From assembly GCA_048940765.1 (NCBI GenBank), contig JBHLOG010000002.1:20254-84253 (forward strand): DNA of 64,000 bases, written 5' to 3'. The position numbers and the translations under genes were made by a program. The DNA comes from Promethearchaeota archaeon (lineage in GTDB: Archaea; Asgardarchaeota; Lokiarchaeia; Sigyniarchaeales; SOKP01). The notes beneath the pieces were generated by a model. The model was given only the letters and a program-made list of their open reading frames with translations, searched no databases and was not told where the DNA came from. Shown here piece after piece: positions 3,115 through 59,284 of this stretch. How positions within the stretch are numbered: position 1 is the first letter of the stretch; each line of letters opens with the position of its first letter.

Positions 3115-5100
3115 ATGGAGTTAACACCAATAAAAATTTATGAAAATTTCATAAATGGAAAAGTAAGTAAAAATGAAACTCTAGATTTGTTAATTACTCT
3201 AATTGAAAATTTCGATGATGATCTAATTAGAAAAGAGAGTATTGATACTTTAAATAAAATCGATTTTAATCACTCAAAAATTTTTAAAACTCTAGAACAG
3301 ATATTAATCTCTGAACCGAATCAAGACTTACGGGCTTCTGCAGCTCAAGTAATAAAAAAAAAATTCATCAAAAGAGCTTTAAATCCATTTATTTGGGCTC
3401 TTCAGCATGAATCTTCGTATCAATGTCTAATTACAATAATTGAATCTTTGGATGAAATAAGAGATTTTAAAGTTATCTCAATATTATTGGATGAAATTAA
3501 AAAACTGTCTAATGAAGAAGCCTTTAATGAGATTATTCCCTCAACTACTAAAAATTTAGATGTGCAACCTTTTTATGAGAATTTGGTAGAAATACTCATT
3601 AATTTAATAAGCATTAAAAGATTAAGAAGTAAATTTGACAAAATTAAATATAAAATTGAAAACGGATCTGTAACTGAACTAGATTTTTCAAATGTAGATA
3701 AAAAAATCATTAATTGGCATGATAGGGAATTTTTTCAAGATTGTTCAGATATAATTGGAATAAAAAATTTAAAGTCTTTAAAGAAAATAGAATTTTTTAG
3801 ACTGGAATGGCTTTTGAAGAATGAATTCACTTTCAAAAGTGCAATTACTTTAATAGAAGTTCTGGAAAAGTTAAATAATAATACTGCTAAGAATGTTCTG
3901 GTAACTCAAATATATAAAATACCTGATAAAAATTTTTGTTCATCAATTAATGATCCATTAAAATTTCATCAGAGTATTGAAGGATTTTCAATTTCCAAAT
4001 TATCGGATATTCTAAGAAATTATTTAACTTTAGCATTTTTAAAAAAGAGATATCCTTCTATTGAATATAATATAGAGAAAGGAGAAATTATTTCAATTTG
4101 TATTGAGAATATAGCATTAACAACAGTGCCAGGCTTCATTAAATATTTTCAATCACTTCAATCATTAACATTAAAAGGATGTAGATTATGTGATCTTCCT
4201 GAATCAATAGGATCATTTGATCATTTAAGAAATTTAGATTTAAGAAACAACAATCTTAAAACGATCCCTAAGACAATTTCTTCTCTTAAATCTCTAAAAT
4301 TCTTAAATTTAAGTAATAACAAATTATATAAACTACCTTCTTCAATAGGAAATCTCTCTACTCTCCAAATTCTAAATTTAGAGACGAATAATCTAACCTC
4401 TTTTCCGAGATCGATTGGACATCTTACATCATTGAAACAACTCAATGCTAGTAAGAATAATTTTCAGAAAATTCCTTCATCAATAGGAGCTCTAAAATAT
4501 CTTAATTCATTAAATTTAAATTATAACAAATTAAAAAATCTGCCACATTCGATTGGATTACTCTATTCCCTTGAAAATCTTAATATAGATAATAATAATT
4601 TAGAAAAAATTCCAAACTCAATAAGTTCTATTTCATCGCTCAAAACTCTTAGTTTAGAAGATAATAAGCTTAAAAAGCTTCCAGAATTCATAGGTTTGCT
4701 TAAATCACTAGAAATTCTGAGGTTGGGTTGGAATAAAATAGAACAACTTCCTAATTCTATTGGTTCTTTAATTAAGATTAAATATTTACGTTTAACTAAT
4801 AATCAAATACAGGAATTTCCCGATTCAATATGCTCACTATCTTTTCTTGAATTCTTAGATGTTTCTCATAATAAATTAGAAGTTCTACCAGAAAAATTTG
4901 GTCAAATAACATCTCTTAGAATCCTTAATTTAAGTGATAATGAATTGAAAAAGATTCCCAACACAATTGGTTCGTTAAACTCTCTTGAAAAGTTAAATCT
5001 TATTGGAAATCAAATCTTTTATATTCCAAAATCAATAAAATTATTATCCTCTCTTGAAGAAATAAAGTTAGATGGAAATAAATTACTGTGTATACCTTAA
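3115..5100 (+). CDS. HEAT-repeat / leucine-rich-repeat (LRR) protein
   Basis: The N-terminus has HEAT/PBS-lyase-like repeats (DLIRKESIDTLNKI, DLRASAAQVI). The C-terminal half has about 14 tandem 23-aa LRRs (LxxLxxLxLxxNxLxxLPxSIGx). The last repeat continues in another frame (see findings). Confidence 0.85.
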   Translation: MELTPIKIYENFINGKVSKNETLDLLITLIENFDDDLIRKESIDTLNKIDFNHSKIFKTLEQILISEPNQDLRASAAQVIKKKFIKRALNPFIWALQHESSYQCLITIIESLDEIRDFKVISILLDEIKKLSNEEAFNEIIPSTTKNLDVQPFYENLVEILINLISIKRLRSKFDKIKYKIENGSVTELDFSNVDKKIINWHDREFFQDCSDIIGIKNLKSLKKIEFFRLEWLLKNEFTFKSAITLIEVLEKLNNNTAKNVLVTQIYKIPDKNFCSSINDPLKFHQSIEGFSISKLSDILRNYLTLAFLKKRYPSIEYNIEKGEIISICIENIALTTVPGFIKYFQSLQSLTLKGCRLCDLPESIGSFDHLRNLDLRNNNLKTIPKTISSLKSLKFLNLSNNKLYKLPSSIGNLSTLQILNLETNNLTSFPRSIGHLTSLKQLNASKNNFQKIPSSIGALKYLNSLNLNYNKLKNLPHSIGLLYSLENLNIDNNNLEKIPNSISSISSLKTLSLEDNKLKKLPEFIGLLKSLEILRLGWNKIEQLPNSIGSLIKIKYLRLTNNQIQEFPDSICSLSFLEFLDVSHNKLEVLPEKFGQITSLRILNLSDNELKKIPNTIGSLNSLEKLNLIGNQIFYIPKSIKLLSSLEEIKLDGNKLLCIP

Positions 5101-11740: not shown

Positions 11741-13459
11741 GTGGTTATTATGAAGTTTGAGGAAATAACGCGAAAAAAAATATTTATTATTTATTTAGGA
11801 ATGATTTTTGGATTTTTTGTAGCTCTACCATTAATATTTAACTTAATTGAATACAATTTTAGAGTTCTCCTTATATCAACAATGGGTAATTACATAATCT
11901 TCATTCTTATCATAATTTTGATAGTTGATGCTTTTTATTTGATTTTTAAACGTCAAAATCATTATTTTTTTTCATTTATTAACATGTGGTTAACAATACT
12001 CTTATTTTCACTAATGATATATAGTTTCCTAAATAATATCTATGAAATAGTATATGTTATGAATTACAGCAATTCTACACTTCCACTAATATATAAAATA
12101 GTTGCAATCTGGGCGGGAGAAGAAGGGTCGATTATGACATGGATGGTATTTAATTCTATCATAATAAATTTCTATCGAAATAAGAATCAAAACAAAGATG
12201 ATGTTGTATTTATACGTTCTGTTATTATTTCATTATTTATATCTATAATATTTTTAATTATCTTATTTTCATTAAATCTATTTGAAGTTGATTCACCCCC
12301 CGTTTTTCCTAATGGTCAAGGATTAAACCCATTATTAATATCTCCATTTATGATATGGCACCCGTTCTTTACATTTATTGCTTACGCCATTTTCTTAGTC
12401 CCCTTTACTATTGTAATTGCAGAAACAATTACTCGTAAAAGGAAATTGTTGGGGGAATACCAATTGAATTTTTATAATTTTTCTTTAAAATTTGGATGGC
12501 TAGTTCTCACTTCAGGCATTGGTTTAGGCGCATATTGGGCTAAAATTGCATTAACTCCTTGGGGTAGATATTGGGGTTGGGATCCTGTTGAAACAGTTTC
12601 ACTTATTCCATGGTTTTTAATAACAGCTTTCTTTCACACTATTATCTTCAAAAAGAAAAATCCAATATTAATAAAAATAAATGTGAGTTTGATTTTTGCA
12701 TCAATAGTGTTTTCAACATTGATTACAAGAGGCGGGGGGTTAAATTCTCTTCATGCGTTTACTGGAGGTGCTGAGTTAATTACATGGGTAATAATTTTAG
12801 GTCTTATTTTGGTCTTTCTTTCCCTTTATGTAATCTATATTGTATTAGATTATTCAATGGGAGAGTATCGAAATAAAAAGCTTTTTTTTGATTACTTGAG
12901 TTATTTACTTTTATTTGCTTTAGCTTTGGTGTGTATTTTTGGTCTTTTAATTCCACCATTTACCTTTTTCCTTTCAAATTTTCTCCCAATAAATATTATT
13001 TTAATCGATATAGATTATTTTATCATAACAACCTTAATTTTATCTACAGGTTTAGCTATATCACTTACATTTTGTTCATTATGGGAATATTTCGAGATTA
13101 AGTGGATAGGATTAGTTATACTTATAGGATTTTCAATTCAATCAGTGCTTTCGTTTATACTTGTAATTACCTCTAACATATGGATAAATCCTGTTTTATT
13201 TATTTATTTAATATCATTATTTTCTTCCCTATTCAAATTGGTAAAAAATTTCAATATGAAAAAGGGAGTAAAATACTTTTTCAGGTTGAATTCAAAAACA
13301 ATAATTCATGCAGGGATTTCCTTAATCCTTGCTGGATTTTTAATGAGTTCGAATTATCAAGACTTTTTTTTCATTCCAGGATTCGTACTGCTATTAATAG
13401 GAATAATTCCTTCAATTATTATCACTTTTTTTCCAATGAAAAAAGTAATTGAGGCGTAA
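11741..13459 (+). CDS. ccmF: Cytochrome c maturation protein CcmF (heme lyase component)
   Basis: AIWAGEEGSIMTW, LNPLLISPFMIWHP, the Trp-rich motif WGRYWGWDPVETVSLIPW, and conserved His in AFFHT and NSLHAF. Polytopic membrane protein. Confidence 0.85.
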   Translation: MVIMKFEEITRKKIFIIYLGMIFGFFVALPLIFNLIEYNFRVLLISTMGNYIIFILIIILIVDAFYLIFKRQNHYFFSFINMWLTILLFSLMIYSFLNNIYEIVYVMNYSNSTLPLIYKIVAIWAGEEGSIMTWMVFNSIIINFYRNKNQNKDDVVFIRSVIISLFISIIFLIILFSLNLFEVDSPPVFPNGQGLNPLLISPFMIWHPFFTFIAYAIFLVPFTIVIAETITRKRKLLGEYQLNFYNFSLKFGWLVLTSGIGLGAYWAKIALTPWGRYWGWDPVETVSLIPWFLITAFFHTIIFKKKNPILIKINVSLIFASIVFSTLITRGGGLNSLHAFTGGAELITWVIILGLILVFLSLYVIYIVLDYSMGEYRNKKLFFDYLSYLLLFALALVCIFGLLIPPFTFFLSNFLPINIILIDIDYFIITTLILSTGLAISLTFCSLWEYFEIKWIGLVILIGFSIQSVLSFILVITSNIWINPVLFIYLISLFSSLFKLVKNFNMKKGVKYFFRLNSKTIIHAGISLILAGFLMSSNYQDFFFIPGFVLLLIGIIPSIIITFFPMKKVIEA

Positions 13460-13610
13460 AAATCTATTCAATATCTTATTTTTTAATTTTATTCCATTTT
13501 AAGAATTTATAATTTTTTAACTTAATAAATATATTAAAGCAAAGTTTTGAATAATTAAACACTTATTAATAGTCAATATATAAATAGTTTAAGCTCTCAC
13601 AATTGAGATC

Positions 13611-14324
13611 ATGTTCACATCAAATAACACAATAATAACTTGTAATAATGTCTCAAAACAATTTGGATATTTTTTTGCGTTAAGAAAAATTTCTTTTAAA
13701 ATTAGAGAAAATACGGTTTTTGGAATTGCGGGGGCAAATGGAGCAGGTAAAACAACATTAATTAAGATTTTATCGGGATTGCTCAAACCAACTTTTGGTG
13801 AAATTATACTCAATGGAATGAATTATGAGGATAATTCTGACATTATAAAACAAAATATTGGAATTAATACTGATGAATCTTTTCTATTTCAAGAATTAAC
13901 TATTTTTGAAAATTTAAAATATTATGCTAATTTGCATTTGAATTTCGAGAAAAAGAATCTTGAGACTAAAATTAAGCATTATTGCAATAAATTCAATTTA
14001 ACAGATTGGATCAACGAACCTGTTAGAATTTTATCTCATGGAATGAAACAAAAAGTAGAATTAATTAGAGTCTTAATACATGATCCATCAATTCTATTCT
14101 TGGACGAGCCATTTTCGGGTTTAGATTACAATGCAACCCAAATGTTAATTAATTTTTTTAGAGAAATAAAAAATGATAAAAATATATCGATAATTCTTAC
14201 AACGCATAAAATTGATGTATTCCAGCAACTTTGTGATGAATTAATCATTTTAAAGAAAGGAAGAATCAGTAAAGCCTTTTCACGTGATGAATTAAATAAG
14301 TATGAAATTAAGTCATATTTTTAG
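13611..14324 (+). CDS. ccmA: ABC transporter ATP-binding protein, CcmA-like heme exporter subunit
   Basis: Walker A GANGAGKTT, signature LSHGMKQK, Walker B ILFLDEPFSGLD. Located between ccmF and ccmB. Confidence 0.8.
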   Translation: MFTSNNTIITCNNVSKQFGYFFALRKISFKIRENTVFGIAGANGAGKTTLIKILSGLLKPTFGEIILNGMNYEDNSDIIKQNIGINTDESFLFQELTIFENLKYYANLHLNFEKKNLETKIKHYCNKFNLTDWINEPVRILSHGMKQKVELIRVLIHDPSILFLDEPFSGLDYNATQMLINFFREIKNDKNISIILTTHKIDVFQQLCDELIILKKGRISKAFSRDELNKYEIKSYF

Positions 14325-14333
14325 GGGGTATAT

Positions 14334-15062
14334 TTGTTGAAAAATGAGAAAATAAAATTCAAATCAAAATTAAGATTACTGAAAGTAATATTATCTAAAG
14401 ATATTAAATCAGAACTCCGACAAATTAATGATTTATTTTCAATTTTTCTTTTTGATATAATCTCAATCTTCATATTTTCGTCAGTTTATAATTTCGGAAC
14501 TCAATATCAGAATATGCCGATGGAAATTTTTGTTATTGAAAACTGGCTTATAATTTTTTTTACACTCATTTATATTATGACTAAACTCTTCGTAAAGGAG
14601 AAAGATACTGGAACTTTAGGAGGGCTTATTTCTTCCCCCGCATCAGCAAACTTAATTCTTATTAGTAAAACCATTTTTTGCTTTATCTTATTGAGTTTCG
14701 TTGAAATCATTTTATTTCTTTTCAGTTTTTTTATATCAGTACCATCGATTAGCAATTTTAATGCAAATCAGTTATTGATTTATTTAAGTCTTGGAGTATT
14801 ATTACCAACATTAGATTTATCTATATGCGGGAGCTTTGTTTCTGCTTTTTCGATGTATGTTAAAAATAAATCCTTTATTTTACCAATTTTGTTATTTCCT
14901 TTAATTCTACCAATTATTACTCCTATCATATCGATAAATATAAAAATTTTAGAAGGAGAATTAATATCAAATCTATATTACGAAATACTATTTTTTAGTG
15001 CGCATATAATTCTCATGAGCTCAATTATAGCATTAACTTCGGAAGCTCTTTTGTATGATTAA
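14334..15062 (+). CDS. ccmB: CcmB-like heme exporter permease
   Basis: A ~6-TM, 242-aa protein 9 nt after ccmA. Assigned by size and synteny. Confidence 0.6.
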   Translation: MLKNEKIKFKSKLRLLKVILSKDIKSELRQINDLFSIFLFDIISIFIFSSVYNFGTQYQNMPMEIFVIENWLIIFFTLIYIMTKLFVKEKDTGTLGGLISSPASANLILISKTIFCFILLSFVEIILFLFSFFISVPSISNFNANQLLIYLSLGVLLPTLDLSICGSFVSAFSMYVKNKSFILPILLFPLILPIITPIISINIKILEGELISNLYYEILFFSAHIILMSSIIALTSEALLYD

Positions 15063-15069
15063 ATAAGAT

Positions 15070-15417
15070 CTAACTACATTGTGTAAGAATCTGGTTTGCA
15101 TTTAAAACCAGAGATGAACTAAATACTCCTTTTACAACAACTTGAATTCCATTTTCCATATCAGTTGAAGGAGTTAAACCATTTATATCTATATAAATAC
15201 TATGTCCACTTTCAGTTAAATTAAAATCACTACCAGCAAATCCTTGTACAATACCTATAACTTGAATCTCTTTATTTTCATATTTGGAAGGATTCAAGGC
15301 AACTTGAGAAACTGTGAGATAAGGACGTGCAGTTGATGTAAGCAATGTAATTATAACAATAATTGAGATAATAATTCCTGCGATTGCAATAATTTTTGTT
15401 TTTTTCAAATTCATCAT
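15070..15417 (-). CDS. ccmE: CcmE-like heme chaperone, Cys-type, ending ...LTQCS
   Basis: An N-terminal TM anchor plus an OB-fold-sized domain (IQVIGIVQG...GIQVVVKGVF...LNANQILTQCS). Cys (15076-15078) occupies the position of the heme-binding His of bacterial CcmE. Confidence 0.7.
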   Translation of the reverse strand: MMNLKKTKIIAIAGIIISIIVIITLLTSTARPYLTVSQVALNPSKYENKEIQVIGIVQGFAGSDFNLTESGHSIYIDINGLTPSTDMENGIQVVVKGVFSSSLVLNANQILTQCS

Positions 15418-15421
15418 CTAC

Positions 15422-15574
15422 TTACTTCAAATTTTTCTCCAAATTTTTCATTCTTTTCAATGTTTTTCTTATTCTAAGTTTGGGATATAAAATTAGAATT
15501 ATAATAACTGCCCAAAATAAAATATAACTAATTGTTATTGTTATTAAATCTTGATCAAAATATTGTAATGACAT
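15422..15574 (-). CDS. ccmD: CcmD-like small membrane protein (50 aa), not in the ORF track
   Basis: MSLQYFDQDLITITISYILFWAVIIILILYPKLRIRKTLKRMKNLEKNLK has a single TM plus a basic tail. It starts 5 nt after the ccmC stop and ends 4 nt before the ccmE start, matching the canonical ccmC-D-E order. Confidence 0.5.
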   Translation of the reverse strand: MSLQYFDQDLITITISYILFWAVIIILILYPKLRIRKTLKRMKNLEKNLK

Positions 15575-15579
15575 TTAAA

Positions 15580-16311
15580 TTACTCCTCTATCAACCTTTT
15601 TTGTATAATTTTATCTAGTTTTTCTTTTGCTTTATCTAATTCTCCTAATCTTTGAATAACATAAAAAAATAATATGGTTATTCCAATTAAATTAAATAAC
15701 AACATGACTATTTTCACTGGATCCCAATAAATATTACCAGGCTCTCCAGGAGTTGGATTAATTAGGGGATGCAAGCTTGTAAATATAATTGCCGAGAAAT
15801 AACTTAAGGGAATTGTAGGAAATAAGGCAATACCTAAAATTGAAGATAATTTTGCTCTTTTTTCTTTATCTTCAACCATACTCCTAAAAATTAAATATGC
15901 TAAATAACAAAGAAGTAATATTAAAGTCATAGTCTGTCTACCATCACTCCATTGCCAATAAATATTGTTATAATCTCCAGAAGTAGAATTGTACCATAAA
16001 GATCCAGTAATTAATGTAAATGCAGTAAAAAATACTCCAACTATTATGCTATTGGTGCCCAACCGATTCCATTTTAATTCTCGTTTATTCAGATAGAGAA
16101 TATGAAATAGGAAACTAAGACCGTATGATAAATATGCAAGCCATGCTCCCGAAACATGGTAAAAAAAAATTATATATACTATTCGATTGGGACTTCCCCA
16201 TACAATAAGGTTAAAGGAAGTCAATATTAAAATTAGAAATAAATTAATCACCAAGATTGTCAATGAAATAATTAATAGGAAGTTAGTCCTGAATAATTTT
16301 GGAATATTCAT
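15580..16311 (-). CDS. ccmC: Cytochrome c maturation protein CcmC
   Basis: 243 aa, 6 TM. Conserved His in FFYHVSGAW and TSLHP. The Trp-rich motif is IYWQWSDGRQT. Confidence 0.8.
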   Translation of the reverse strand: MNIPKLFRTNFLLIISLTILVINLFLILILTSFNLIVWGSPNRIVYIIFFYHVSGAWLAYLSYGLSFLFHILYLNKRELKWNRLGTNSIIVGVFFTAFTLITGSLWYNSTSGDYNNIYWQWSDGRQTMTLILLLCYLAYLIFRSMVEDKEKRAKLSSILGIALFPTIPLSYFSAIIFTSLHPLINPTPGEPGNIYWDPVKIVMLLFNLIGITILFFYVIQRLGELDKAKEKLDKIIQKRLIEE

Positions 16312-16470: not shown

Positions 16471-17148
16471 TTACAATTCTTTTTTCCTCATTCGCTTTCT
16501 TACTGTTAATATTAAAACAGTTGTTACCGCTACACTGCTACCAATAATGATTGTTAAAATGCCTCCCGAAATAGTATCTGTGCCTGTACCAGTAGTGCCT
16601 GTAACAGTAATCTCGATTAAACTTTCAACATAAGTAATATTATAATAAGATCCATCCGTCTGATTCATTCCTGCTATTGCCACCGCATAAAGATCATATG
16701 TTCCAGCTTTGCTAGGAGCAATAAGGGCAAATTTATTATCATCGTCAGAAGGATCATAAGATCCATAACTATCTACCTGTTCTCGTCTATTTAATGTTTG
16801 GTTAGCAAGAGATGATGTAAATAACCCGTTATCACCTTGATATCCTGGTACGCCTAAAGTGAATCTACCAGCATAAGGAGCTAAATTAGCCTCTGTAAAG
16901 TTAAGGATATCTACTTCCAAGGTAAAATGCTGTAAGGGAGATAAATCTCCAGTCACATTAATAGATAGTACCAAAGTTCCATTTACACTAGCTTTAGTAT
17001 TAGCTGAATTATGACACATACCATGAGTTCCACCTTCTCCATCGTTAATCCATCTATATAGATATTCTTGATATCCCACAGCTGCACCTATAATTCCTAT
17101 AAGTAAGGCTGAAAAAATCAATAGTGAAAGAATTTTAGTTTTTCTCAA
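16471..17148 (-). CDS. Exported, C-terminally anchored protein with an HxxCH motif (candidate non-canonical heme protein)
   Basis: A signal/anchor helix is followed by EGGTHGMCHNSAN (17011-17025 encodes HGMCH). Then comes a beta-rich glycosylatable domain, a TGTGT linker, a TM and a basic tail. It lies upstream of ccmC on the same strand. Confidence 0.7.
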   Translation of the reverse strand: MRKTKILSLLIFSALLIGIIGAAVGYQEYLYRWINDGEGGTHGMCHNSANTKASVNGTLVLSINVTGDLSPLQHFTLEVDILNFTEANLAPYAGRFTLGVPGYQGDNGLFTSSLANQTLNRREQVDSYGSYDPSDDDNKFALIAPSKAGTYDLYAVAIAGMNQTDGSYYNITYVESLIEITVTGTTGTGTDTISGGILTIIIGSSVAVTTVLILTVRKRMRKKEL

Positions 17149-17930: not shown

Positions 17931-18494
17931 TTAGAAATTACCACATCCATTACATTTCCCATCAAGAAATGCGGCACATGCTTTACATATATTTTCACAT
18001 TTATGTTCTTTGCTTTCACCACTAAAAAGCTTAATTGGAAGAAATTTTGGTACTAATACTTCAGATGCAAATATCGTTGCAGAATGTAGTATTCCTTCTT
18101 TGTTGGTTGGACCACAATAATTGATATATCTACGTAAAACGTCAATATCTTGGCCTATTACTCCAAAGATCAAGTTGTATTGCCCAGCCACATGAGCTAA
18201 TAAAAAAACTCTGGGACATTCCGCATAAGCATCAATAATTTTTTGTACTTCATTATAGCTTCTCATTTCAATTAAAATAAAAGCAATATAATAATTTAAG
18301 CTCTTAGGACTTATATTTCCTTGAACCTTTAGAACTCCTGAGTCCTCTAATTTTGTAATTCTCTTTGCAATACCTGCATGGCTCATTGTTTCTTGATTTG
18401 ACTTTAATACAATTTTACTTAAAGAACTTAAACTTTCACGACCATTTTCAAATAAAGATTTAAGAATCTGCTTGTCAATTCGATCCAAAGTCAT
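17931..18494 (-). CDS. Lrp/AsnC-family regulator with a C-terminal 5-Cys motif
   Basis: N-terminal HTH (LDRIDKQILKSLFENGRESLSSLSK...GIAKRITKLEDSGVL), a RAM-like middle part, and the C-terminus KCENICKACAAFLDGKCNGCGNF. Confidence 0.75.
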   Translation of the reverse strand: MTLDRIDKQILKSLFENGRESLSSLSKIVLKSNQETMSHAGIAKRITKLEDSGVLKVQGNISPKSLNYYIAFILIEMRSYNEVQKIIDAYAECPRVFLLAHVAGQYNLIFGVIGQDIDVLRRYINYCGPTNKEGILHSATIFASEVLVPKFLPIKLFSGESKEHKCENICKACAAFLDGKCNGCGNF

Positions 18495-18622: not shown

Positions 18623-18899
18623 AACCACACATATTTATTATATATGATAGATAAACTATTATTTATCAATTTAATTAGAAAAACAATAATAATAACAAGG
18701 CATTATATAAATGAAAAATTAATTATTGGACATCAAATCTAATTAAAGGTTTACTTATAAATATAATATTTCTTAATAGAAAATTGTAAAACGTACATCA
18801 AATTTTGAAATATTGTCGAGCTAACTTTTTATAAACGACAAATTTTAAAAATTGGTAATTAAGATCTAATTAATTAAATTAAGTATCAATTTGAAAATT

Positions 18900-19463
18900 A
18901 TGCTATTAGATAATATTGATAAACAGATTTTATTTGAATTGTTCAAAGAAGGACGTCAAAGTTTAACAAACTTGGAAAAAGTTATATATAAATCAGGTGA
19001 TGAAACAATGAGCCATACAGGTATTGCAAAGAGAATTACGAAATTAGAGGACTCAGAAGTTCTAAAGGTTCAAGCGAATACAAATATCAATACGCTCCAA
19101 TATAAATCTCTATTTCTACTAATCGAGATGAGTAATTATGAGGAAGTACAAAATATAATTAAAGCTTATCAAGATTGCCCACGAATATTTTTATTAGCTC
19201 AGGTAACAGGTCAATATAATTTAATATTAGGAATTATAGGGCAAAATATTGATGTTCTACACAGATATATTAATTACTGTGGACCCACGAATAAAAAGGG
19301 GATACTTCACTCCGCTACTATATTCGTATCTGATTTTATCACCCCTAAGTATTTGCCAATTAATCTTTTCAGCCAAGACAGTAAAGAAGAAAAATGTGGA
19401 AATATATGTAGTGACTGTGCTGCCTATCTTGATGGGAAGTGTAATGGATGTGGTTCTTTTTAA
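18900..19463 (+). CDS. Lrp/AsnC-family regulator with a C-terminal 5-Cys motif (paralogue of 17931-18494)
   Basis: MLLDNIDKQILFELFKEGRQSL... aligns end to end with the divergent paralogue, by eye about two thirds identical. C-terminus KCGNICSDCAAYLDGKCNGCGSF. ATG 18900 is preferred over TTG 18891 by alignment. Confidence 0.75.
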   Translation: MLLDNIDKQILFELFKEGRQSLTNLEKVIYKSGDETMSHTGIAKRITKLEDSEVLKVQANTNINTLQYKSLFLLIEMSNYEEVQNIIKAYQDCPRIFLLAQVTGQYNLILGIIGQNIDVLHRYINYCGPTNKKGILHSATIFVSDFITPKYLPINLFSQDSKEEKCGNICSDCAAYLDGKCNGCGSF

Positions 19464-19885: not shown

Positions 19886-21199
19886 ATGGCAGTAAAAGTA
19901 GCTTTTATGCAATTAAGTGACTGTTGGGGCTGTCATCAATCTCTTTTAAACGCTCATTTAGGTTTGTTGCCAGTTCTACCAGCATTAGAGATTGTATATT
20001 GGCCAGCTGTAGTTGATTTTAAACATGATTCATTGAAACAAAGAGACCCAGGTTCAATTTTAGTTGGTTTCATTGAAGGATCTATCCGTACAAATGAAGA
20101 TTATGATAATGTTAAACTGATGAGAGAAAAATGTGCTTTAGTAATTTCTTTTGGTAGCTGTGCCTGCTATGGAAATGTACATGGATTAGCTAATCAATGG
20201 AATATAGAGGAATTAGTAAAGAGAAAATTCTCTCAAGTTGAAAGCATAGCTGATGAGAGTGGTGGAGAACCGACCCTGCATACTCCTGGTTTTAGAGAGA
20301 AGGTTGTCCCTGTTGATGAAGTAATAAATGTTGATGCATATATATCTGGATGTCCACCAAAGCCAGAGCAAATTATTAGTAGTGTCGCATTTTTATTAGG
20401 ACAAAAACCATTTCCCATGAATGATCTTGCATTTTGTAATGATTGTGCAATAAAAAATGATTGTTTATTGGATCATGGAGTAATGTGTTATGGTTCAATT
20501 ACCAGTATCGGTTGTGATTTAAAGTGTACTAGTGACAAAAAACCTTGTGTAGGTTGTTTTGGTCCAGCGAAAACTGTTGATTCAAGAGCAGAAAAATTAA
20601 ACAACATGTCTAAAAATTTGAGTTCAATTAGTCTGGGTGACAAAAAAAATGTATATGAATTTTTAACATTGTTTTTAAATGTTCCTTTAATGGCCGGATT
20701 TGATTTATCTGGAGATATCTTAAAACAAATTAAAAAACATGGAACTCCGGATACTCCATTAGCTAATCTACCTCCAACAACAGAAGAAATTTCTACAAAC
20801 TTATTAGAATTTTTGAAGGAAAATCCTGATTTTCATGATATTTCAAATGTATGCGATACGTGTCCTCGAATTATTGGTAGTAAGTCAACTATGACAAGAG
20901 TCAAAAGAGATTATGAAGGGCTTCCAAATATGGAAGATTGTCTAATTGAACAAGGATATATCTGTATGGGCCCTGTAACTAAAGCTGGCTGCGGTGCTTT
21001 GTGTATAAAGGTTAATGCTCCATGTACTGGTTGTTTTGGTCAAACAGTATGGGGCGTTAATCAAGCAGAAAGGTTCGCTGATACGGTACTCAAACAATTT
21101 AATGTTAGCTTATCAAAAGAAGAATTACTGTCTCAGGTAAAAGATCCAATTGGTACATTTGAAAAATTTACTTTAGCATCAAGAAAAGGAGGTATATAA
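19886..21199 (+). CDS. mvhG: [NiFe]-hydrogenase small subunit (MvhG-like, group 3)
   Basis: N-terminus KVAFMQLSDCWGCHQS, then FGSCACYG and ISGCPP (proximal cluster ligands). Two C-terminal Cys modules each end in PCxGCFG. Confidence 0.85.
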   Translation: MAVKVAFMQLSDCWGCHQSLLNAHLGLLPVLPALEIVYWPAVVDFKHDSLKQRDPGSILVGFIEGSIRTNEDYDNVKLMREKCALVISFGSCACYGNVHGLANQWNIEELVKRKFSQVESIADESGGEPTLHTPGFREKVVPVDEVINVDAYISGCPPKPEQIISSVAFLLGQKPFPMNDLAFCNDCAIKNDCLLDHGVMCYGSITSIGCDLKCTSDKKPCVGCFGPAKTVDSRAEKLNNMSKNLSSISLGDKKNVYEFLTLFLNVPLMAGFDLSGDILKQIKKHGTPDTPLANLPPTTEEISTNLLEFLKENPDFHDISNVCDTCPRIIGSKSTMTRVKRDYEGLPNMEDCLIEQGYICMGPVTKAGCGALCIKVNAPCTGCFGQTVWGVNQAERFADTVLKQFNVSLSKEELLSQVKDPIGTFEKFTLASRKGGI

Positions 21200-21202
21200 A
21201 AA

Positions 21203-22507
21203 ATGGCGAAAGAAATAGAAGTAGAGCCAGTCACTCGATTAGAGGGACATGGTGGTTTAAGATTAGTTTTAGGCGATGATGGAAAAATACAAGATGTTCA
21301 ATTCAATATCACTTCCACAAGATTTTTTGAGAAGTTTCTTGAAGGACGTTATTGCGAGCATATTCCTAGAATAACTCCGAGAATTTGTGGTATATGTCCA
21401 ATTCCTCATCATTTAACTCCAACTAAAGCGGTGGAAGATGCATGGCAGGTTGAAATTCCTACTCCTGCGTATAAATTACGACAATTATTGCAGAATGCTA
21501 AACAATATTCATCACACGCTTTACATTTCTATGCACTTGCTGCTCCTGACTTTTTATTGGGACCTATGGCTGATCCAGCATTAAGAAATGTGGTACATGT
21601 AATTAATCAAATGCCAGATGTAGGTGCAATGGCATTAAAAATGATGGATTTTGGTCAGAAATTATGTGCTGCAGTAGGAGGGAAATCTGTACATCCTATT
21701 TCTGCTATCGTTGGTGGTATGAAAAAGCCTTTAGATGAAGATGTTCGAGATTTGTTTTTAAAACAAATTGCAGATCAGGTTGAATGGACTAAGAAAACCG
21801 TTGATATTGGTTTAAAAGTAGTTGAAGATTATTGGGATGTTGTGGCTAACGTAGGAGTTGTACCCACTTACTATGCTGGTATGACGAAAAATGGAGTTCA
21901 TGACATTTATGATGGAGATCTTCGCATAGTATCTCCAAATGGGGAGAAGTTCGATTATCCACCTCAAAAATATTTGGACGCTCTAGGTGAACATATCCCC
22001 AAGCATTCTTATGCAACTCACATGTACTATAAGCCAGCTGGATATCCTGAGGGAATATATAGAGCAAATACTTTAGCAATGATTAACTGTGCAGATAAGA
22101 TGGCAACTCCTTTAGCAGATGAAGCGTTGCAGGCTATGAGGGCAAAAGTTGGTAACATATCCCATCACACATTCGCATATCATTGGGCTCGATTAATTGA
22201 ATTAGTAGAATCTATTGAAGTAATCGCAACATTACTTCAAGATGATGATATTGTTAATCCTGATTGTAAGACTTTAGATGTACAGCCTAGAGAAGGAAAT
22301 GGTGTTGGTCTCACAGAAGCTCCAAGAGGAATACTCTTATATAATATATGGTCCGATGCTGAAGGAATTTGTAAAAAGGCAAATCTTTTAGTTGCAACAA
22401 ACCATAACATCGCAGGAATTGAAAAGACATTGAAGCATGTCGCTAAGCAAGTTTTTGAGGACAAGGCGCTTGATGGTTTAAAATTACCAGACCCATGGAT
22501 AAAATAA
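21203..22507 (+). CDS. mvhA: [NiFe(Se)]-hydrogenase large subunit (MvhA/VhuA-like), lacking the C-terminal Ni-binding motif
   Basis: RLEGHGG and RICGICPIPHH (N-terminal RxCGxCxxxH Ni ligands). The ORF ends ...LKLPDPWIK without DPCxxCxxH. Confidence 0.9.
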   Translation: MAKEIEVEPVTRLEGHGGLRLVLGDDGKIQDVQFNITSTRFFEKFLEGRYCEHIPRITPRICGICPIPHHLTPTKAVEDAWQVEIPTPAYKLRQLLQNAKQYSSHALHFYALAAPDFLLGPMADPALRNVVHVINQMPDVGAMALKMMDFGQKLCAAVGGKSVHPISAIVGGMKKPLDEDVRDLFLKQIADQVEWTKKTVDIGLKVVEDYWDVVANVGVVPTYYAGMTKNGVHDIYDGDLRIVSPNGEKFDYPPQKYLDALGEHIPKHSYATHMYYKPAGYPEGIYRANTLAMINCADKMATPLADEALQAMRAKVGNISHHTFAYHWARLIELVESIEVIATLLQDDDIVNPDCKTLDVQPREGNGVGLTEAPRGILLYNIWSDAEGICKKANLLVATNHNIAGIEKTLKHVAKQVFEDKALDGLKLPDPWIK

Positions 22508-22549
22508 ATTAAATATAATGAAAATTAAAGAAAGAAGTGAACAAAAAAG

Positions 22550-22699
22550 ATGAGTGATATACCTGAAGGTGTAGTAAATCTCTTAGAAATGGTAGTTCGC
22601 TGTTTTGACTGTTGACTATCATGCGCTGCTCATATAACAGTTGTTGATGAGCGGGGCAAAGAGATATACTCTCGAGAAATGAACGTAGGTTTAGGATGA
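22550..22699 (+). CDS. vhuU: VhuU-like mini-subunit carrying the C-terminal Ni-binding motif with a predicted selenocysteine (in-frame TGA 22613-22615)
   Basis: Reads MSDIPEGVVNLLEMVVRCFDC-TGA-LSCAAHITVVDERGKEIYSREMNVGLG-TGA. With TGA read as Sec, this restores D-x-[C/U]-x-x-C-x-x-H, which is missing from the upstream large subunit. Confidence 0.7.
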
Positions 22700-22750
22700 A
22701 TGTCCAATAAAAATGATTGAAATTGGACATAACTGCCCCTTGCGTGGGGT
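22700..22750 (+). promoter_or_regulatory. Structured 3' region of the vhuU-like gene (candidate SECIS)
   Basis: A 9-bp perfect stem 22700-22708/22722-22730 has a 13-nt loop AAAAATGATTGAA. A CCCC/GGGG hairpin (22736-22739/22746-22749) follows. It sits in an unusually long ~100-nt intra-operon spacer. Confidence 0.3.
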
Positions 22751-22794
22751 TAAAACCTACAAATAAATAAATCATTCAAAAAATAAGAAAAAAG

Positions 22795-23310
22795 TTGAAA
22801 AAAATGGAAACAAATTTCGAATTTAGAAAACAAGTTATGGATTATCATATTGGGCCTGATGTAATTAAATATTGTTATCAATGCAGTAGATGTGCTGATA
22901 ATTGTCCTGTAACTGCGGTTACAACTGATTTTTATACAACCACAGGATATAATCCTAGAAGTAATATCTTAGCAGCATTATTAGGATATAAAGATTTACT
23001 CCTTGGAGGAGACGAGTTAGGGATTTGGGGGTGTACTGTATGTGATACATGTGATGAAGTATGTCCTCAAAAGATTGAACTTACAGAAATCTTTACTTTT
23101 CTAAAAAATCAAAGTATTGCTTTGGGTAAAGGTCCAGAATTTATTTATTCCCAAGCGAAAGCTATATTTGAAAATGCTAAAGCAATTCCATCACAACCTG
23201 CTATTGAGAGACGGAGAGAACAATTAGGTATACCAGCTATAATAAATCCGGAAATAAATGAAGTACAAACATTATTAAAGAATATTGGAGCTGAGAAGAA
23301 ATTAAAATAA
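22795..23310 (+). CDS. hdrC: Heterodisulfide reductase subunit C (HdrC)
   Basis: CYQCSRCADNCPV and CTVCDTCDEVCPQ, about 170 aa, directly upstream of hdrB. The ATG at 22804 may be the true start. Confidence 0.8.
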   Translation: MKKMETNFEFRKQVMDYHIGPDVIKYCYQCSRCADNCPVTAVTTDFYTTTGYNPRSNILAALLGYKDLLLGGDELGIWGCTVCDTCDEVCPQKIELTEIFTFLKNQSIALGKGPEFIYSQAKAIFENAKAIPSQPAIERRREQLGIPAIINPEINEVQTLLKNIGAEKKLK

Positions 23311-41456: not shown

Positions 41457-42764
41457 TTGATGATAGGAATAGGAGGGCTTATTGGAGGAGGTATTTTTAG
41501 TGTAATAGGCGTAATATCAAATTTTACTGGTCCTTATTCATATATATCTTATTTAATCACTGGTATCATTGCTTTATTCACTGTTTATTCATATCAGAAG
41601 TTGACTTCTAAGTGGTGTAATCCTGGTGGTGAATATACCTGTGTTCAAGGTGCTCTGGTTGGAAGTAAATTTCAGAATTTAGGTCTCTTTATTGGAATTT
41701 TATTGATTTTTGGCTATGTTGCCAGTATGGCGCTTTATTCATATACTTTTAGTATTTATTTTCTTTTATTATTCAATATTAGACCTAATTTTCTTTCAAT
41801 TACTCTAATAATTTGTCTTTTGTTTACTTTTTTTATTTTCGTAAATTTAAAAGGAGTAAAAGAATCTTCTAGAGTACAGAATTTATTTGTTTTAATTAAA
41901 GTCATCATTTTAATCATATTCTCTATATTTGGGATTAGATTTGCACTCCAAAATCCTATCCAATTAATAACCAATGTGGGCTTCAATTTAGAATCATTTG
42001 GTAATATCAATTTTGCCGGTATAATATTAGGAAGTTCTTTAATAATTGTATCTTACCAAGGTTTTCAATTAATTACATATGGTGCGTATGAAATGGAAAA
42101 TAAAGAGGCTGGATTAAAAATGATGAAATGATCAATTGCTATTTCTATATTTATTTACTTTTTTGTTGCTTTTACCGCAGTTGCAGTTTTAGGTGTGTCT
42201 GAATTAATTGGTGAACATGTTCATGATGCTGAAGTAGCAATAGCAATAGCTGCCTTAAATTTTTTGGGCAATTATGGAATGGCGATAATTATAATAGGGG
42301 CGTTATTATCCACTGCTAGTGCTTTAAATGCCACATTGTTAGGGTCTTCCCGTTTGACCTATATGATGGCTAAAGACGGTATAATTCCTAATTCCCTTTC
42401 AAAGATTAGTAAAAGCAAAGTCCCTTACATTTCTATTATTATAATAGGAATATTGAGTACTACCCTTACAATTGTAACAGGAGGTGCTTTAGCAATAGCC
42501 GGTGTTGCTGGATTAATTTTTGCCCAGATATTTCTAATAATTAATTTTACTAATTTTAAAGTTCGGAAACAGACAAATAGTAAAGTTATTTATCCATTAA
42601 TCGGAATGATATTTACTTTTTCTTTCTTTTTGATCTTAATTATCTATAATATTATAAATATTAAAAAAGAAATATTCTCTTTGTTATCCTTTTTACTGAT
42701 TGAAGGATATAGCTTATTTTTTGTAATTCACATAAATCATAAAAATAGTTTAAAGAAATTATAG
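41457..42764 (+). pseudogene. APC-family amino acid permease interrupted by a single in-frame TGA (42129-42131)
   Basis: ORFs 41457-42131 and 42195-42764 are in the same frame, and the 63 nt between them are open (SIAISIFIYFFVAFTAVAVLG). N-terminal MIGIGGLIGGGIF is the APC signature. About 12 TM in total if joined. Confidence 0.6.
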
Positions 42765-53720: not shown

Positions 53721-55184
53721 TTAAATATAAGTATGAATCAAATCTACAAGATTTTTAGAAAAATTAGGTAAATTCTCTTCTATTTTTTCAATTTCTAAAC
53801 TTTTCTCTAAAAATAATAACAAGTATAAATTATATTTTTCAACTGTTATTTTCTTAAAGATAACTTTTTTTGATTCATCAGCTATTCCAGAAGAAACGAT
53901 AAAATCTTGTTCTAATAGTTTATATTCTTTAAAATTTTTATAAAGTGATTGAAAGTGAGGTGCGCTAATTTCAAATACTTTTCCAGAAATTTCATTCTTA
54001 GAGAAACTAGATAATATGATTCCATTTTCATTTAGCAACAAAATAGCTTCGGAATTTGTTTTTTTAGCAAATTTTTTTAATTGATTCCTAAATAATTCTC
54101 GATTAGGACTTAATTGAGAAAGACCAAAAGAATATGCAGAAATAAGGCTCCAATGATCAAAGATACTTGTTTGAAAGATTTTTATAAAAAATCTGTCAGA
54201 ATTCTTTTTAATCTCATCTGCAATTATTTCTAAATTTTTAAAAATTTCTTCATTTCCTTTTAAATCAGGATCAAACTTGTTTAAGCTTACGATAATCGGA
54301 GGAAATTCCTCTAATTCTATTAACGAAGTTAAAATCCTTCTAAGTAAATCAAGGGCATCATTTATCCTTTCTACATCTTGAATATCAATAAAGAAAAATA
54401 ATAAATCTATATTATACAAATATACTTTACTTTGTTCAAGAAATCGTTCTCGATATTGCTTTTGTCCGCCTAAATCCCAAATTGATATCAAAGAATTTTG
54501 TTCTTCAAAAATTTTCTCCTCTGATCTCTCAACTCCTTTAGTCGGTAAAGATTTAATGATTTCAGAATATTTTCTTCTTATTCCATGTAAAAAGCTCGTC
54601 TTACCTGCTTTATCGAGTCCAGTAAGAAGAATTTTAATTTGTCTTCTTGTAGAAAAAGGATCTTTTAATTCTTTAGTGAATTCAAATAATTCTTCTTTTA
54701 AGTTATCAATAATTTTCACTTTCTCATTTAGATCTTTAGAATTTTGGATTTCAATAGCTGTTCTATCAATTATTACTCTCAGATATTTCATATTTTGATA
54801 GAAAAAGACTTTATCATCTTCATCAATTAATACCGTAATAGTAGCAGCTAACGCCTTTCCACGAGCCCCAACATCAGGAATGAGAAAAAAATAAGTTAAT
54901 CCATTTAATTTTAAATCGGGGAAAGGTAATATTCCAAAATAATTAACTCCTTCTGTTCCTGTACCATCTTGATATGTTGCATCTCCCATTAATAAACTAA
55001 TTGTTTTCATAGCAATTAAAAGTCCAGCACTCTCATTTAAATCCTTAGGCCAAAAAACTTTAGGGCTTGGTCCGTTTTCATCAAAAATACTTAATACAAC
55101 GACTTTTATAATATCAGTTTTGAGTTCGTTTAATTCTTTTTCAATTGGGTTATCTTTTTCTGGATCAGATTTTAACTTTGGCAA
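53721..55184 (-). CDS. Three-domain small GTPase: longin/uDENN-like N-domain, Arf/Sar-like G domain, roadblock-like C-domain
   Basis: G1 is LLTGLDKAGKTS, G3 is WDLGGQ, G4 is NKFD. The N-domain is VVVLSIFDENGPSPKVFWP...GILPFPD...LTYFFLI. The C-domain is EAILLLNENGIILSSFS. Confidence 0.8.
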   Translation of the reverse strand: MPKLKSDPEKDNPIEKELNELKTDIIKVVVLSIFDENGPSPKVFWPKDLNESAGLLIAMKTISLLMGDATYQDGTGTEGVNYFGILPFPDLKLNGLTYFFLIPDVGARGKALAATITVLIDEDDKVFFYQNMKYLRVIIDRTAIEIQNSKDLNEKVKIIDNLKEELFEFTKELKDPFSTRRQIKILLTGLDKAGKTSFLHGIRRKYSEIIKSLPTKGVERSEEKIFEEQNSLISIWDLGGQKQYRERFLEQSKVYLYNIDLLFFFIDIQDVERINDALDLLRRILTSLIELEEFPPIIVSLNKFDPDLKGNEEIFKNLEIIADEIKKNSDRFFIKIFQTSIFDHWSLISAYSFGLSQLSPNRELFRNQLKKFAKKTNSEAILLLNENGIILSSFSKNEISGKVFEISAPHFQSLYKNFKEYKLLEQDFIVSSGIADESKKVIFKKITVEKYNLYLLLFLEKSLEIEKIEENLPNFSKNLVDLIHTYI

Positions 55185-57444: not shown

Positions 57445-58239
57445 ATGGAAATACAAACTGAATCATCATTAAAACAATTTTTTAGTGAAATATATCATAT
57501 CCTAAGAGAAACCAACACAAATGTCATTGATATTTGGCTAGAAATCTCAGAAATCCATTTTTTAAAACAATTTAATAATTCTGAATTAAGGAATTTTATT
57601 GAAAATTTCAATTTCATTTCTCTTCAAAAAGGAAATTATCAATACTATATAATTATAAATAAGATCGTGTTTATTGTAGAAACTATTAACATATTACAAC
57701 TTGATATAAGACAAATATCCGAAATTTTGAATTATGATGGATTTGAAGCCCTTATCAAAGAAATTCTTTCAAAAAATAATTATATCACTATTAAAAATTT
57801 TAGATTCTCTGATAATTCAAATTTTAGATATAAAACATTTCAAAAAAGGTATGAAATTGATATTATTGGAATTTATTCTAAATATATATTACTTATTGAT
57901 GCAAAACAATGGAAAAACAAAAACTCCTTTAACTCGATTAATAAAGCAGCAGATTTGCAATATAATAGAGCAATTGCTTTAAAAAAAAATCCAGAAATTT
58001 TTTCGAAATTAATTCAAACATTATTGGGATCAAAGATTAAGTTATATAAACGACTTCCATTCATCTTAATCCCAATTATCGTTACTTTAGAAGATAATGA
58101 TATCAAAATAAATAGCAATCAAATTCCTCTTGTTTCAATTTATGAATTAAATTCTTTTTTACACGAATTGCATAATAATTTGAAATTCTTTAGAACTCTT
58201 CAAGTTAATAAAGTAGTTATCCAAAGAAGCATAATATGA
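57445..58239 (+). CDS. PD-(D/E)xK nuclease-fold protein (Mrr/NERD-like)
   Basis: GFEALIKEILSKNNY...YEIDIIG...ILLIDAKQW fits a D...(D/E)xK core. ATG 57445 is preferred over the upstream alternative start. Confidence 0.5.
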   Translation: MEIQTESSLKQFFSEIYHILRETNTNVIDIWLEISEIHFLKQFNNSELRNFIENFNFISLQKGNYQYYIIINKIVFIVETINILQLDIRQISEILNYDGFEALIKEILSKNNYITIKNFRFSDNSNFRYKTFQKRYEIDIIGIYSKYILLIDAKQWKNKNSFNSINKAADLQYNRAIALKKNPEIFSKLIQTLLGSKIKLYKRLPFILIPIIVTLEDNDIKINSNQIPLVSIYELNSFLHELHNNLKFFRTLQVNKVVIQRSII

Positions 58240-58264: not shown

Positions 58265-59284
58265 TTAAGACTTTTTATCCTCTCCTTCAAAATATTCTTT
58301 TAATTGCTTTTTTACTATATTAATAGCAAAAGAAATTATTCCACTCTTAAATTTGGGGTGGGAAAATAAAATTAAAATCATATCCTTAGTACGTGGATCT
58401 TCTTTACCTATAGGAGCAAGATCTAATACTCCCTCTGATCCACGAACAGAAATGGCTTTTAGGTGACCTGCTTCTAATCCTTCTATTATATCTCCTCCAA
58501 TCATTGAAAGGTTCATACCAATTGTTGCAAATAGAGAATTAGAAATCCTTCCTGATATTGCTGATGCCAATATGGTACCATCTGTCTTTATAATAGCTGA
58601 TGCTTCAATATTTAAGTCTAATGTAAGTAAACGCTTTAAAATTTCATTCATACTGGAAGGAGGAATTGCTTCTTTTGGTTCTTTTTTTTGTTCGGCTTTA
58701 ACTTTTGGAATTTCCAATTTCTTTACAGATATCTTTTTTGAAAGAAAACTAAGTACTTCTGTCATATCTTTTTCTAATCTTTCTTGTTTTGATCTTGAAA
58801 CATCACTTTTTTGAGCTTCTGGTGGAATGGATGTTAAAGGAATTTCTTGCTTTTTAGCTACTCCCTCAGATATCGAACTTTTAAGTTCACTTAATGCATC
58901 TTTAATAGCAACATTCGATCTAGGCGGCGGAGAGGGAAAAGCTCTAGATCCTTTATATGGTTGAGGAGTAATTTCTTGAAGAACTTCTAATTTTTTTTTT
59001 TCTTTTTCTTTTTGTCGATCATTAGAAGTTTCTAGATCGGTATCTTCAATCAAAGAATCGGGAATCTCTTGTAATTCAAGATCCATTTTTTCTTTTTGTT
59101 GCTTATCAGGAGATGGTTTAACTGGCTCTTCAATTGAACTTTTTTTTTTCTTCTTTTCTTTACCAATTTTTGAACTTCTTATTCGTGAAGTTTTAGAAGT
59201 TAACGGTAATAAAGCCCCACATTTCCTGCAAATATGAGTCGTGGCTTCATTATTAGTTGCACCACAATTACTGCATATTATCAT
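58265..59284 (-). CDS. Zn-ribbon + Lys/Glu-rich linker + Roadblock/LC7 (MglB-like) domain protein
   Basis: N-terminus CSNCGATNNEATTHICRKCGA. C-terminus LDLNIEASAIIKTDGTILASAISGRISNSLFATIGMNLSMIGGDIIEGLEAGHLKAISVRGSEGVLDLAPIG. Confidence 0.7.
   Translation of the reverse strand: MIICSNCGATNNEATTHICRKCGALLPLTSKTSRIRSSKIGKEKKKKKSSIEEPVKPSPDKQQKEKMDLELQEIPDSLIEDTDLETSNDRQKEKEKKKLEVLQEITPQPYKGSRAFPSPPPRSNVAIKDALSELKSSISEGVAKKQEIPLTSIPPEAQKSDVSRSKQERLEKDMTEVLSFLSKKISVKKLEIPKVKAEQKKEPKEAIPPSSMNEILKRLLTLDLNIEASAIIKTDGTILASAISGRISNSLFATIGMNLSMIGGDIIEGLEAGHLKAISVRGSEGVLDLAPIGKEDPRTKDMILILFSHPKFKSGIISFAINIVKKQLKEYFEGEDKKS

Follow-up and report, generated by a model that had tools for sequence, protein, structure and literature searches.

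The operon vhuG-vhuA-vhuU-hdrC-hdrB of a Lokiarchaeial archaeon very probably codes for a group 3c [NiFeSe] hydrogenase, the large subunit of which is made in two pieces and carries a selenocysteine (Sec) recoded from UGA. The operon lies in a stretch of 64,000 nucleotides from an Asgard (Promethearchaeota/Lokiarchaeia) MAG, which was analysed at full length and is called the window here. This view is carried by the homology of both pieces to hydrogenase large subunits, an invariant in-frame TGA codon, selection on both sides of this codon, and a covarying SECIS element.

All genes of the operon are on the forward strand. The original prediction of an mvhG-mvhA-X-hdrC-hdrB operon stands; profile matches characterise the neighbours as VhuG-like, HdrC and HdrB. 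The vhuG/mvhG-like gene of the hydrogenase small subunit is located at 19886..21199. Its product of 437 aa exceeds the 286-position VhuG profile. It matches Pfam Oxidored_q6 (E 8e-24) and NCBIfam VhuG (NF045875, E 3.7e-71, under the curated cut-off). Next are vhuA (21203..22507) and the 49-codon selenoprotein gene vhuU (22550..22699). The hdrC-like gene at 22804..23310 is identified by the NCBIfam model for CoB-CoM heterodisulfide reductase C (E 3.9e-19); its start is ATG 22804 in the public gene call and TTG 22795 in the mechanical ORF. The hdrB-like gene at 23327..24205 matches NCBIfam TIGR03288 (E 2.1e-87) and Pfam CCG. An HdrA C-terminus and MvhD were found at positions 1-1118 of the window. 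In at least seven related loci the gene order is vhuGA-hdrCB-vhuU.

In the public annotation of the source contig (GCA_048937845.1, JBHLMT010000003.1) the interval between vhuA and hdrC is without any gene. In the mechanical ORF list an antisense ORF (22509-22775) takes the place of the mini-gene, as had been noticed before. This antisense frame is open in just 1 of 68 orthologous loci and is, thus, spurious.

The vhuA ORF codes for a 434-aa homologue of [NiFe]-hydrogenase large subunits, identified by NCBIfam, PDB and related sequences. The protein lacks the C-terminal Ni-binding strand, exactly as predicted and at the predicted coordinates. The N-terminal Ni ligands, Cys62 and Cys65, are present in the motif RICGICPIPHH (21380-21412), the sequence ends with ...LKLPDPWIK, and DPCxxCxxH is absent. 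The best NCBIfam model is VhuA (NF041785, E 1.7e-140). The match extends from position 3 to 417 of the 418 positions of the profile, i.e., the point of truncation is that of methanogen VhuA. The score of 468 bits compares with a curated equivalog cut-off of 800. The top PDB matches are 9sfi_g (418 aa, E 3e-123), 5odc_F (E 1e-109) and 9sw2_F.

The missing strand is encoded by vhuU. The mini-gene was predicted correctly to the base: ATG 22550, 42 nt past vhuA, opens the frame MSDIPEGVVNLLEMVVRCFDC-TGA(22613-22615)-LSCAAHITVVDERGKEIYSREMNVGLG-TGA(22697-22699). The proposed HMM comparison of the 49-codon translation gave VhuU (NF041786, E 1.2e-14) as the best NCBIfam model. With U entered as C the score is 53.8 bits, under the curated cut-off of 70; the mini-protein is still a clear homologue. 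Both models, VhuA and VhuU, appear to be tuned to methanogen sequences, judging from the model names and from the methanogen origin of the best PDB matches. The 49-aa peptide has no Pfam match. It does match 9sfi_M, a chain of 27 aa labelled 'F420 non-reducing hydrogenase subunit' and the partner of 9sfi_g. All sequences that a search of protein databases with VhuU, limited by its word index, brought up were unnamed and from Asgard archaea; methanogen VhuU was not among them.

When joined, VhuA and VhuU can be aligned with the unsplit MvhA (5odc_F) over residues 5-466, i.e., beyond the catalytic His at 462. In this alignment VVNLLEMVVRCFDC[U]LSCAAHI stands opposite the C-terminal Ni-binding strand of MvhA. 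Opposite the TGA, 5odc_F has the C of DPC and 9sfi_M has X (Sec). As residue 22 of VhuU, the TGA (22613..22615) thus takes the place of the first Cys in DPCxxCxxH. VhuU supplies the missing strand with Sec at the position that was foreseen, ...RCFDC-U-LSCAAH. The strand proper, D-C-U-L-S-C-A-A-H (22607..22633), contains Sec22, Cys25 and His28 and is invariant at the protein level while synonymous sites vary. The exchange of Pro for Cys ahead of Sec, DCU and not DPU, was likewise recognised correctly: the sequence is RCFDCU here and RAYDPU in methanogen Vhu, the latter motif taken from PDB 9sfi_M. The assignment to group 3c agrees with these motifs, RICGICPIPHH on VhuA and the C-terminal motif on VhuU as the variant DCUxxCxxH. 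It also agrees with the context, as the closest relatives are Mvh/Vhu large subunits and hdrC and hdrB are within the operon.

His28 is followed by a C-terminal extension (22634..22696). Here the original prediction of 16 residues has to be corrected; the extension has 21 (ITVVDERGKEIYSREMNVGLG). Its counterpart in the alignment with FrhA (3zfs_A) is the C-terminal extension of that protein, which fits an extension that is removed by a protease. Presumably, the VhuU tail is removed by a maturation endopeptidase.

Related loci were collected by a VhuA scan of species-representative genomes. This yielded 80 loci with 83-95% amino-acid identity, nearly all labelled as Asgard archaea and mostly as Promethearchaeota; Loki MAGs are included (Loki_b31, L080). 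The vhuU mini-gene with the same TGA is present in each of the 76 loci which have enough downstream sequence. In the other four the sequence stops at a contig edge. The orthologues comprise 70 distinct nucleotide sequences. All 70 have the TGA at residue 22, and RC[F/Y]DCU-LSCAAH is invariant throughout. Conservation 3' of the TGA had been set beforehand as a test of the Sec reading, which the locus passes. Across the 70 sequences pN/pS is 0.17 after and 0.095 before the TGA. In LSCAAH pN is 0 at a pS of 0.40. Even in the 21-residue tail pN/pS is 0.21 and synonymous changes are abundant.

A lokiSECIS (22685..22760) overlaps the 3' end of the UGA-containing ORF; the window has no other. It was identified by covariation, RNAalifold, a covariance model and a pattern scan. 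The region of the stop codon reads G-AUGA-AUGUCCAAU-AAAAAUGAUUGAA-AUUGGACAU-AAC. The lower helix I has 8 bp (22685-22692 paired with 22753-22760). The AUGA core (22696-22699), with the stop UGA inside, is followed by helix II (22700-22708 paired with 22722-22730), a 9-bp stem of AUGUCCAAU and AUUGGACAU, which is closed by an apical loop of 13 nt, AAAAAUGAUUGAA (22709-22721). Next to helix II is AAC (22731-22733). An extra, GC-rich hairpin (22735-22750) separates helix II from the 3' strand of helix I; it belongs to the set of helices found by covariation and RNAalifold.

In an alignment of 63 distinct sequences 95.8% of cells are paired in this three-helix structure. Compensatory double changes occur in eight pairs, among them six of the nine in the 9-bp stem. 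Not one of 500 shuffles reached the observed level of pairing and covariation, and in slid controls pairing fell to 24-50%. RNAalifold independently predicted the same three helices. Helix I is formed from the Val-Gly-Leu codons, the last ones of vhuU; two of its pairs covary, and GUAGGC...GCCUAC alternates with GUUGGU...ACCAAC.

At gathering thresholds no Rfam family matches anywhere in the window, the SECIS included. A covariance model was therefore built from our own alignment. One match in the window was accepted, at 86.8 bits (E 8e-25). The second-best match (58020-58078, minus strand, 16.6 bits) was rejected as noise because the upstream gene ends with TAA and has no continuing frame. 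A generic lokiSECIS pattern of AUGA, stem and A-rich loop matches only once on both strands of the 64 kb, i.e., at the vhuU stop codon. Together with the 76 of 76 loci that carry the mini-gene, these two results put it well outside the range of chance. The loop starts with AAAAA. It has 13 nt in the window and in about 14 close relatives; in other relatives it is the 11-nt AAAAAUAAUAG (...AUAG). AUGA is located directly 5' and AA directly 3' of the main stem, as in the published lokiSECIS of VhuU. Mariotti (2016; PMC4989117) describes the lokiSECIS by AUGA in front of a 9-bp stem, a loop of 11 nt that opens with five A's, and GA behind the stem ('except AA in VhuU'); in VhuU.1 the AUGA also serves as the UGA stop. 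Huang (2024; PMC11227280) gives an apical loop of 8-20 nt as criterion for type I eSECIS-like elements, which the element here fits, and UGG_CCA lower-stem pairs for the frhA/VhuU SECIS. The Sec reading of the first TGA is, thus, supported by a SECIS with published Loki features right after vhuU.

Is this an isolated case within the window? The window was scanned for two ORFs in one frame with a single TGA in between. No second candidate for a selenoprotein with a SECIS came up; the only other pair, a split permease, has no SECIS. The HdrA C-terminus/MvhD at the start of the window is of the Cys type; in the part visible it has neither a Sec codon nor a SECIS. ARAGORN detected no tRNA in the window, and by ARAGORN and Pfam scans none of tRNA-Sec, EFSec, PSTK, SepSecS and SPS is encoded within these 64 kb. 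For the lineage the Sec machinery is documented by Mariotti (2016; PMC4989117) and Huang (2024; PMC11227280).

Other explanations of the locus can be judged against these data. One may suspect a decaying pseudogene of a large subunit; translation would then end at the TGA, and the DxxxxCxxH read beyond it would be a remnant. Such a view could point to the mechanically called ORF, which stops at 21 codons, and to the public annotation, which has no gene at vhuU. It is refuted by the TGA and the 3' part, which are conserved in 70 distinct sequences at a pN/pS of 0.17 and with many synonymous changes. Further, VhuA retains its length of 434 aa in almost every one of the 80 loci and a covarying SECIS follows vhuU. 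A pseudogene is, thus, exceedingly improbable. The loss of Sec decoding must be considered separately, i.e., an intact-looking relic in a genome which recently lost the capability, so that the locus yields no functional Vhu hydrogenase. The window itself is without Sec machinery, and according to PMC11227280 the Sec trait is missing from roughly 14% of the genomes of Lokiarchaeia/Helarchaeales. Yet vhuU is intact here, with its TGA and a SECIS of three complete helices (86.8 bits). Lineages that abandoned Sec show conversion of TGA to TGY and erosion of the SECIS. We consider a recent loss as quite improbable.

A different proposition is that UGA is read as a standard amino acid, either as Trp (genetic codes 4/25) or as Cys by near-cognate read-through. 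Database calls of orthologues in fact have W at the TGA, e.g., P0001 with ...CFDCWLSCAAH...GLGW.... However, these calls also pass the true stop into the SECIS, which marks them as artefacts of a code-4 gene caller. TGA terminates 7 of the 51 long ORFs in the window, i.e., it is an ordinary stop here, and a reassignment of the genetic code is not the explanation. Trp is unable to ligate Ni. A SECIS with published Loki features is at the expected place. Finally, where Sec has naturally been exchanged for Cys, the codon is TGT or TGC and the SECIS is being lost. Taken together, decoding as a standard amino acid is highly improbable and UGA recoding as Sec is the preferred reading.

On the basis of Sec recoding the following sequence of events may be envisaged. 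The hydrogenase would be cytoplasmic and of the Mvh/Vhu-type, with a large subunit assembled from VhuA (434 aa) and the 49-residue precursor of VhuU. The NiFe centre would be held by Cys62 and Cys65 from VhuA and by Sec22 and Cys25 from VhuU, followed by His28. UGA 22613-15 would be recoded to Sec by the eukaryote-like lokiSECIS, which starts 80 nt further on, between vhuU and hdrC; insertion of Sec itself is probably accomplished by EFSec and tRNA-Sec. The second UGA (22697-99), being inside the SECIS core, would be too close for its own recoding and act as a real stop. A stop UGA within the SECIS core fits the idea of a minimal distance given by Mariotti (2016; PMC4989117). After insertion of Ni an endopeptidase would cut off the 21-residue tail. 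The mature enzyme may associate with HdrABC/MvhD for flavin-based electron bifurcation. In the literature surveyed we found no report of experimental Se incorporation for any Asgard protein.

The surroundings of Sec deserve attention. VhuU of the Loki clade has Cys at -4 and -1 with respect to Sec (CxxCUxxC), i.e., RCFDCU compared to RAYDP-U/C in methanogen Vhu/Mvh, without exception in the 70 Sec-type sequences. In two environmental variants Sec is replaced by Cys, the large subunit still being split, and both retain the Cys at -4 and -1. One of them has a SECIS relic of 60.6 bits with a broken helix I; in the other the SECIS is lost. The codon after UGA is CUA in 70 of 70 sequences, whereas other Leu codons vary freely. 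UGA-CUA is a classic leaky-stop context in eukaryotes. In the text of the literature surveyed no description was found of the CxxCU motif, the invariant CUA, or the three-helix SECIS with its 3' hairpin. One might speculate, with little confidence, that Cys-x-x-Cys-Sec, in which Cys and Sec are neighbours like those of thioredoxin reductase, forms a reversible selenenylsulfide/disulfide that protects or gates the [NiFeSe] site, e.g., against O2, and that UGA-CUA and the three-way-junction SECIS tune recoding.

The locus matters mainly for annotation. The public record of the MAG omits vhuU, and as annotated the hydrogenase looks catalytically dead. Therefore, metabolic reconstructions of Asgard archaea should rescue vhuU. 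This affects Asgard H2 metabolism and syntrophy models of eukaryogenesis. In the big protein collections VhuU orthologues are unnamed, and many are mis-called with the TGA as Trp plus read-through of the stop. A new kind of system is not involved. What the locus contributes is one more clear and well-supported case, with comparative detail on the CxxCU motif, on CUA as the codon after UGA, on the three helices of the SECIS, and on stages in the conversion of Sec to Cys.

The identification of vhuU is a correct rediscovery. The family is already known from published selenoproteins of Lokiarchaeota/Asgard archaea, including the overlap of AUGA and stop. VhuU with this type of SECIS is reported as a Lokiarchaeota selenoprotein by Mariotti (2016; PMC4989117), and according to Huang (2024; PMC11227280) it is present in 68.3% of Sec-utilising Asgard genomes. 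It is also found in Atabeyarchaeia and Freyarchaeia (PMC11291895) and is listed in a 2026 review (PMC13188914). Lokiarchaeota VhuU.1 (PMC4989117), named FrhA/MvhA/VhuU in PMC11227280, is likewise a separate gene of ~50 aa with one Sec. Shared features are AUGA as stop, the 9-bp stem, the AAAAA start of the loop, AA instead of GA after the stem, and the UGG_CCA lower-stem pairs of the published frhA/VhuU SECIS. The apical loop differs with 13 nt here compared to 11 nt in the lokiSECIS as published.

The likeness to the split of the Methanococcus vhuDGAU operon, pointed out in the original prediction, is real; the large subunit is cut at the same loop as in Methanococcales VhuA/VhuU. As in Methanococcales VhuU (M. 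voltae; NF041785/NF041786; 9SFI chains g and M), Sec-x-x-Cys-x-x-His is on VhuU. The differences are evident. The methanogen motif is RAYDP-U-YSCAAH compared to RCFDC-U-LSCAAH here, and the methanogen SECIS is of the archaeal GAA_A-type, whereas here it is of the eukaryote-like AUGA type. VhuA has about 16 more C-terminal residues than Methanococcales VhuA, and the operon has hdrCB where that of Methanococcales has vhuD. With the unsplit MvhA of Methanothermococcus thermolithotrophicus (5ODC) the hydrogenase shares the group 3c context with Hdr and alignable residues 5-466. MvhA, however, is one polypeptide with Cys for Sec, and no recoding signal is needed. Periplasmic [NiFeSe] hydrogenases of sulfate reducers (1CC1, 2WPN) have Sec for the same terminal Ni-ligand Cys. 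Those enzymes are bacterial, unsplit and of a different hydrogenase group, and only the N-terminal region aligns. Their genes carry a bacterial SECIS inside the ORF.

The SECIS element of vhuU (22685-22760), examined in the window and in an alignment of 63 related loci, is more than an AUGA motif with a plain stem and loop; it is a three-helix junction. Its lower helix comprises 8 bp formed by the Val-Gly-Leu codons and a complementary stretch some 60 nt further downstream; covariation is seen at two of these pairs in the 63-locus alignment. A conserved, GC-rich hairpin (22735-22750) follows helix II and precedes the lower helix's 3' strand. The apical loop has 13 nt in the window's subclade, where the other relatives have 11 nt.

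The codon context of selenocysteine is conserved too. CUA directly follows the Sec UGA (22616-22618 in the window) in all 70 distinct sequences, whereas TTA, TTG and CTN are used freely at the other Leu positions of the orthologous vhuU genes. In eukaryotes, stops in the context UGA-CUA are well known to be leaky; therefore, CUA may favour recoding over termination here.

In public protein collections the vhuU orthologues are unnamed (P0001-P0020). The TGA has been called as Trp in 10 of the 12 that were retrieved (...CFDCWLSCAAH...GLGW...), and most of these Trp-called proteins extend past the real stop into the SECIS. The mis-annotation is systematic.

The position of vhuU within the operon varies. 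At no fewer than seven related loci (L010, L057, L058, L065, L067, L072, and L076) the order is vhuG-vhuA-hdrC-hdrB-vhuU, i.e., vhuU and its SECIS follow hdrB at a distance of about 1.5 kb from vhuA. Some MAGs possess both arrangements as paralogues, e.g., DZ1B.199 (loci L010 and L039). Further, there are split U-subunits in which Sec is replaced by Cys, one at loci L082/L083 (protein P0012, CYDCCLSCASH), the other at L084/L085 (P0021, CFDCCLSCAAH). At L082 a SECIS relic is still present (60.6 bits) with a disrupted lower helix; at L084 the SECIS is essentially gone. These loci look like snapshots of a Sec-to-Cys conversion in which the subunits were not re-fused.

Elsewhere in the window, a single in-frame TGA (42129-42131) splits an amino-acid permease gene (41457-42764, +) with Pfam AA_permease_2 matches on both halves. 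No SECIS-like element was detected downstream; a sequencing error, read-through or loss of the gene's function (a pseudogene) could each account for the interruption. At 11741-16311 there is a gene cluster similar to those for cytochrome c maturation; it encodes two Cytochrom_C_asm proteins, an ABC ATPase and a CcmB-like protein, adjoined by a secreted or membrane protein of 225 aa (16471-17148); for a Lokiarchaeial genome this cluster is worth noting. A Gtr1/RagA-family GTPase, a protein that has no Pfam match and whose C-terminal half by eye resembles Roadblock/LC7, and a large LRR protein (in this order, at 53721-55184 (-), 58265-59284 (-) and 3115-5100 (+)) are of the eukaryote-signature type, consistent with an Asgard origin.

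Just upstream of vhuG two divergent paralogues of 187 and 190 aa resemble AsnC/HTH-type regulators (17931-18494, -; 18891-19463, +). Both carry a Cys-rich C-terminal tail (...KCxNICxxCAAxLDGKCNGCGxF); they may sense redox state or metals and control the hydrogenase operon accordingly. The VhuG-like small subunit (19886-21199) has 437 aa versus 286 positions in the VhuG profile, and its match to that profile is divided into three stretches; an extra region of about 150 aa contains a second CxGCFG-type Cys motif. The L010 orthologue has 455 aa.

The window starts inside an HdrA gene, of which it contains the C-terminal half (1-645), overlapped by an MvhD/FlpD gene (642-1118; Pfam FlpD, E 7e-46), and no lokiSECIS follows this pair. 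HdrA-VhuD pairs described for Loki contain Sec, whereas this pair is Cys-type in its visible part. VhuU itself differs from its methanogen counterpart. Residues 18-25 form a Cys-x-x-Cys-Sec-x-x-Cys motif (RCFDCULSC; 22601-22624), invariant across all 70 distinct Sec-type sequences, where methanogen VhuU has RAYDPUYSC; the two additional Cys are kept in both Cys-converted variants.
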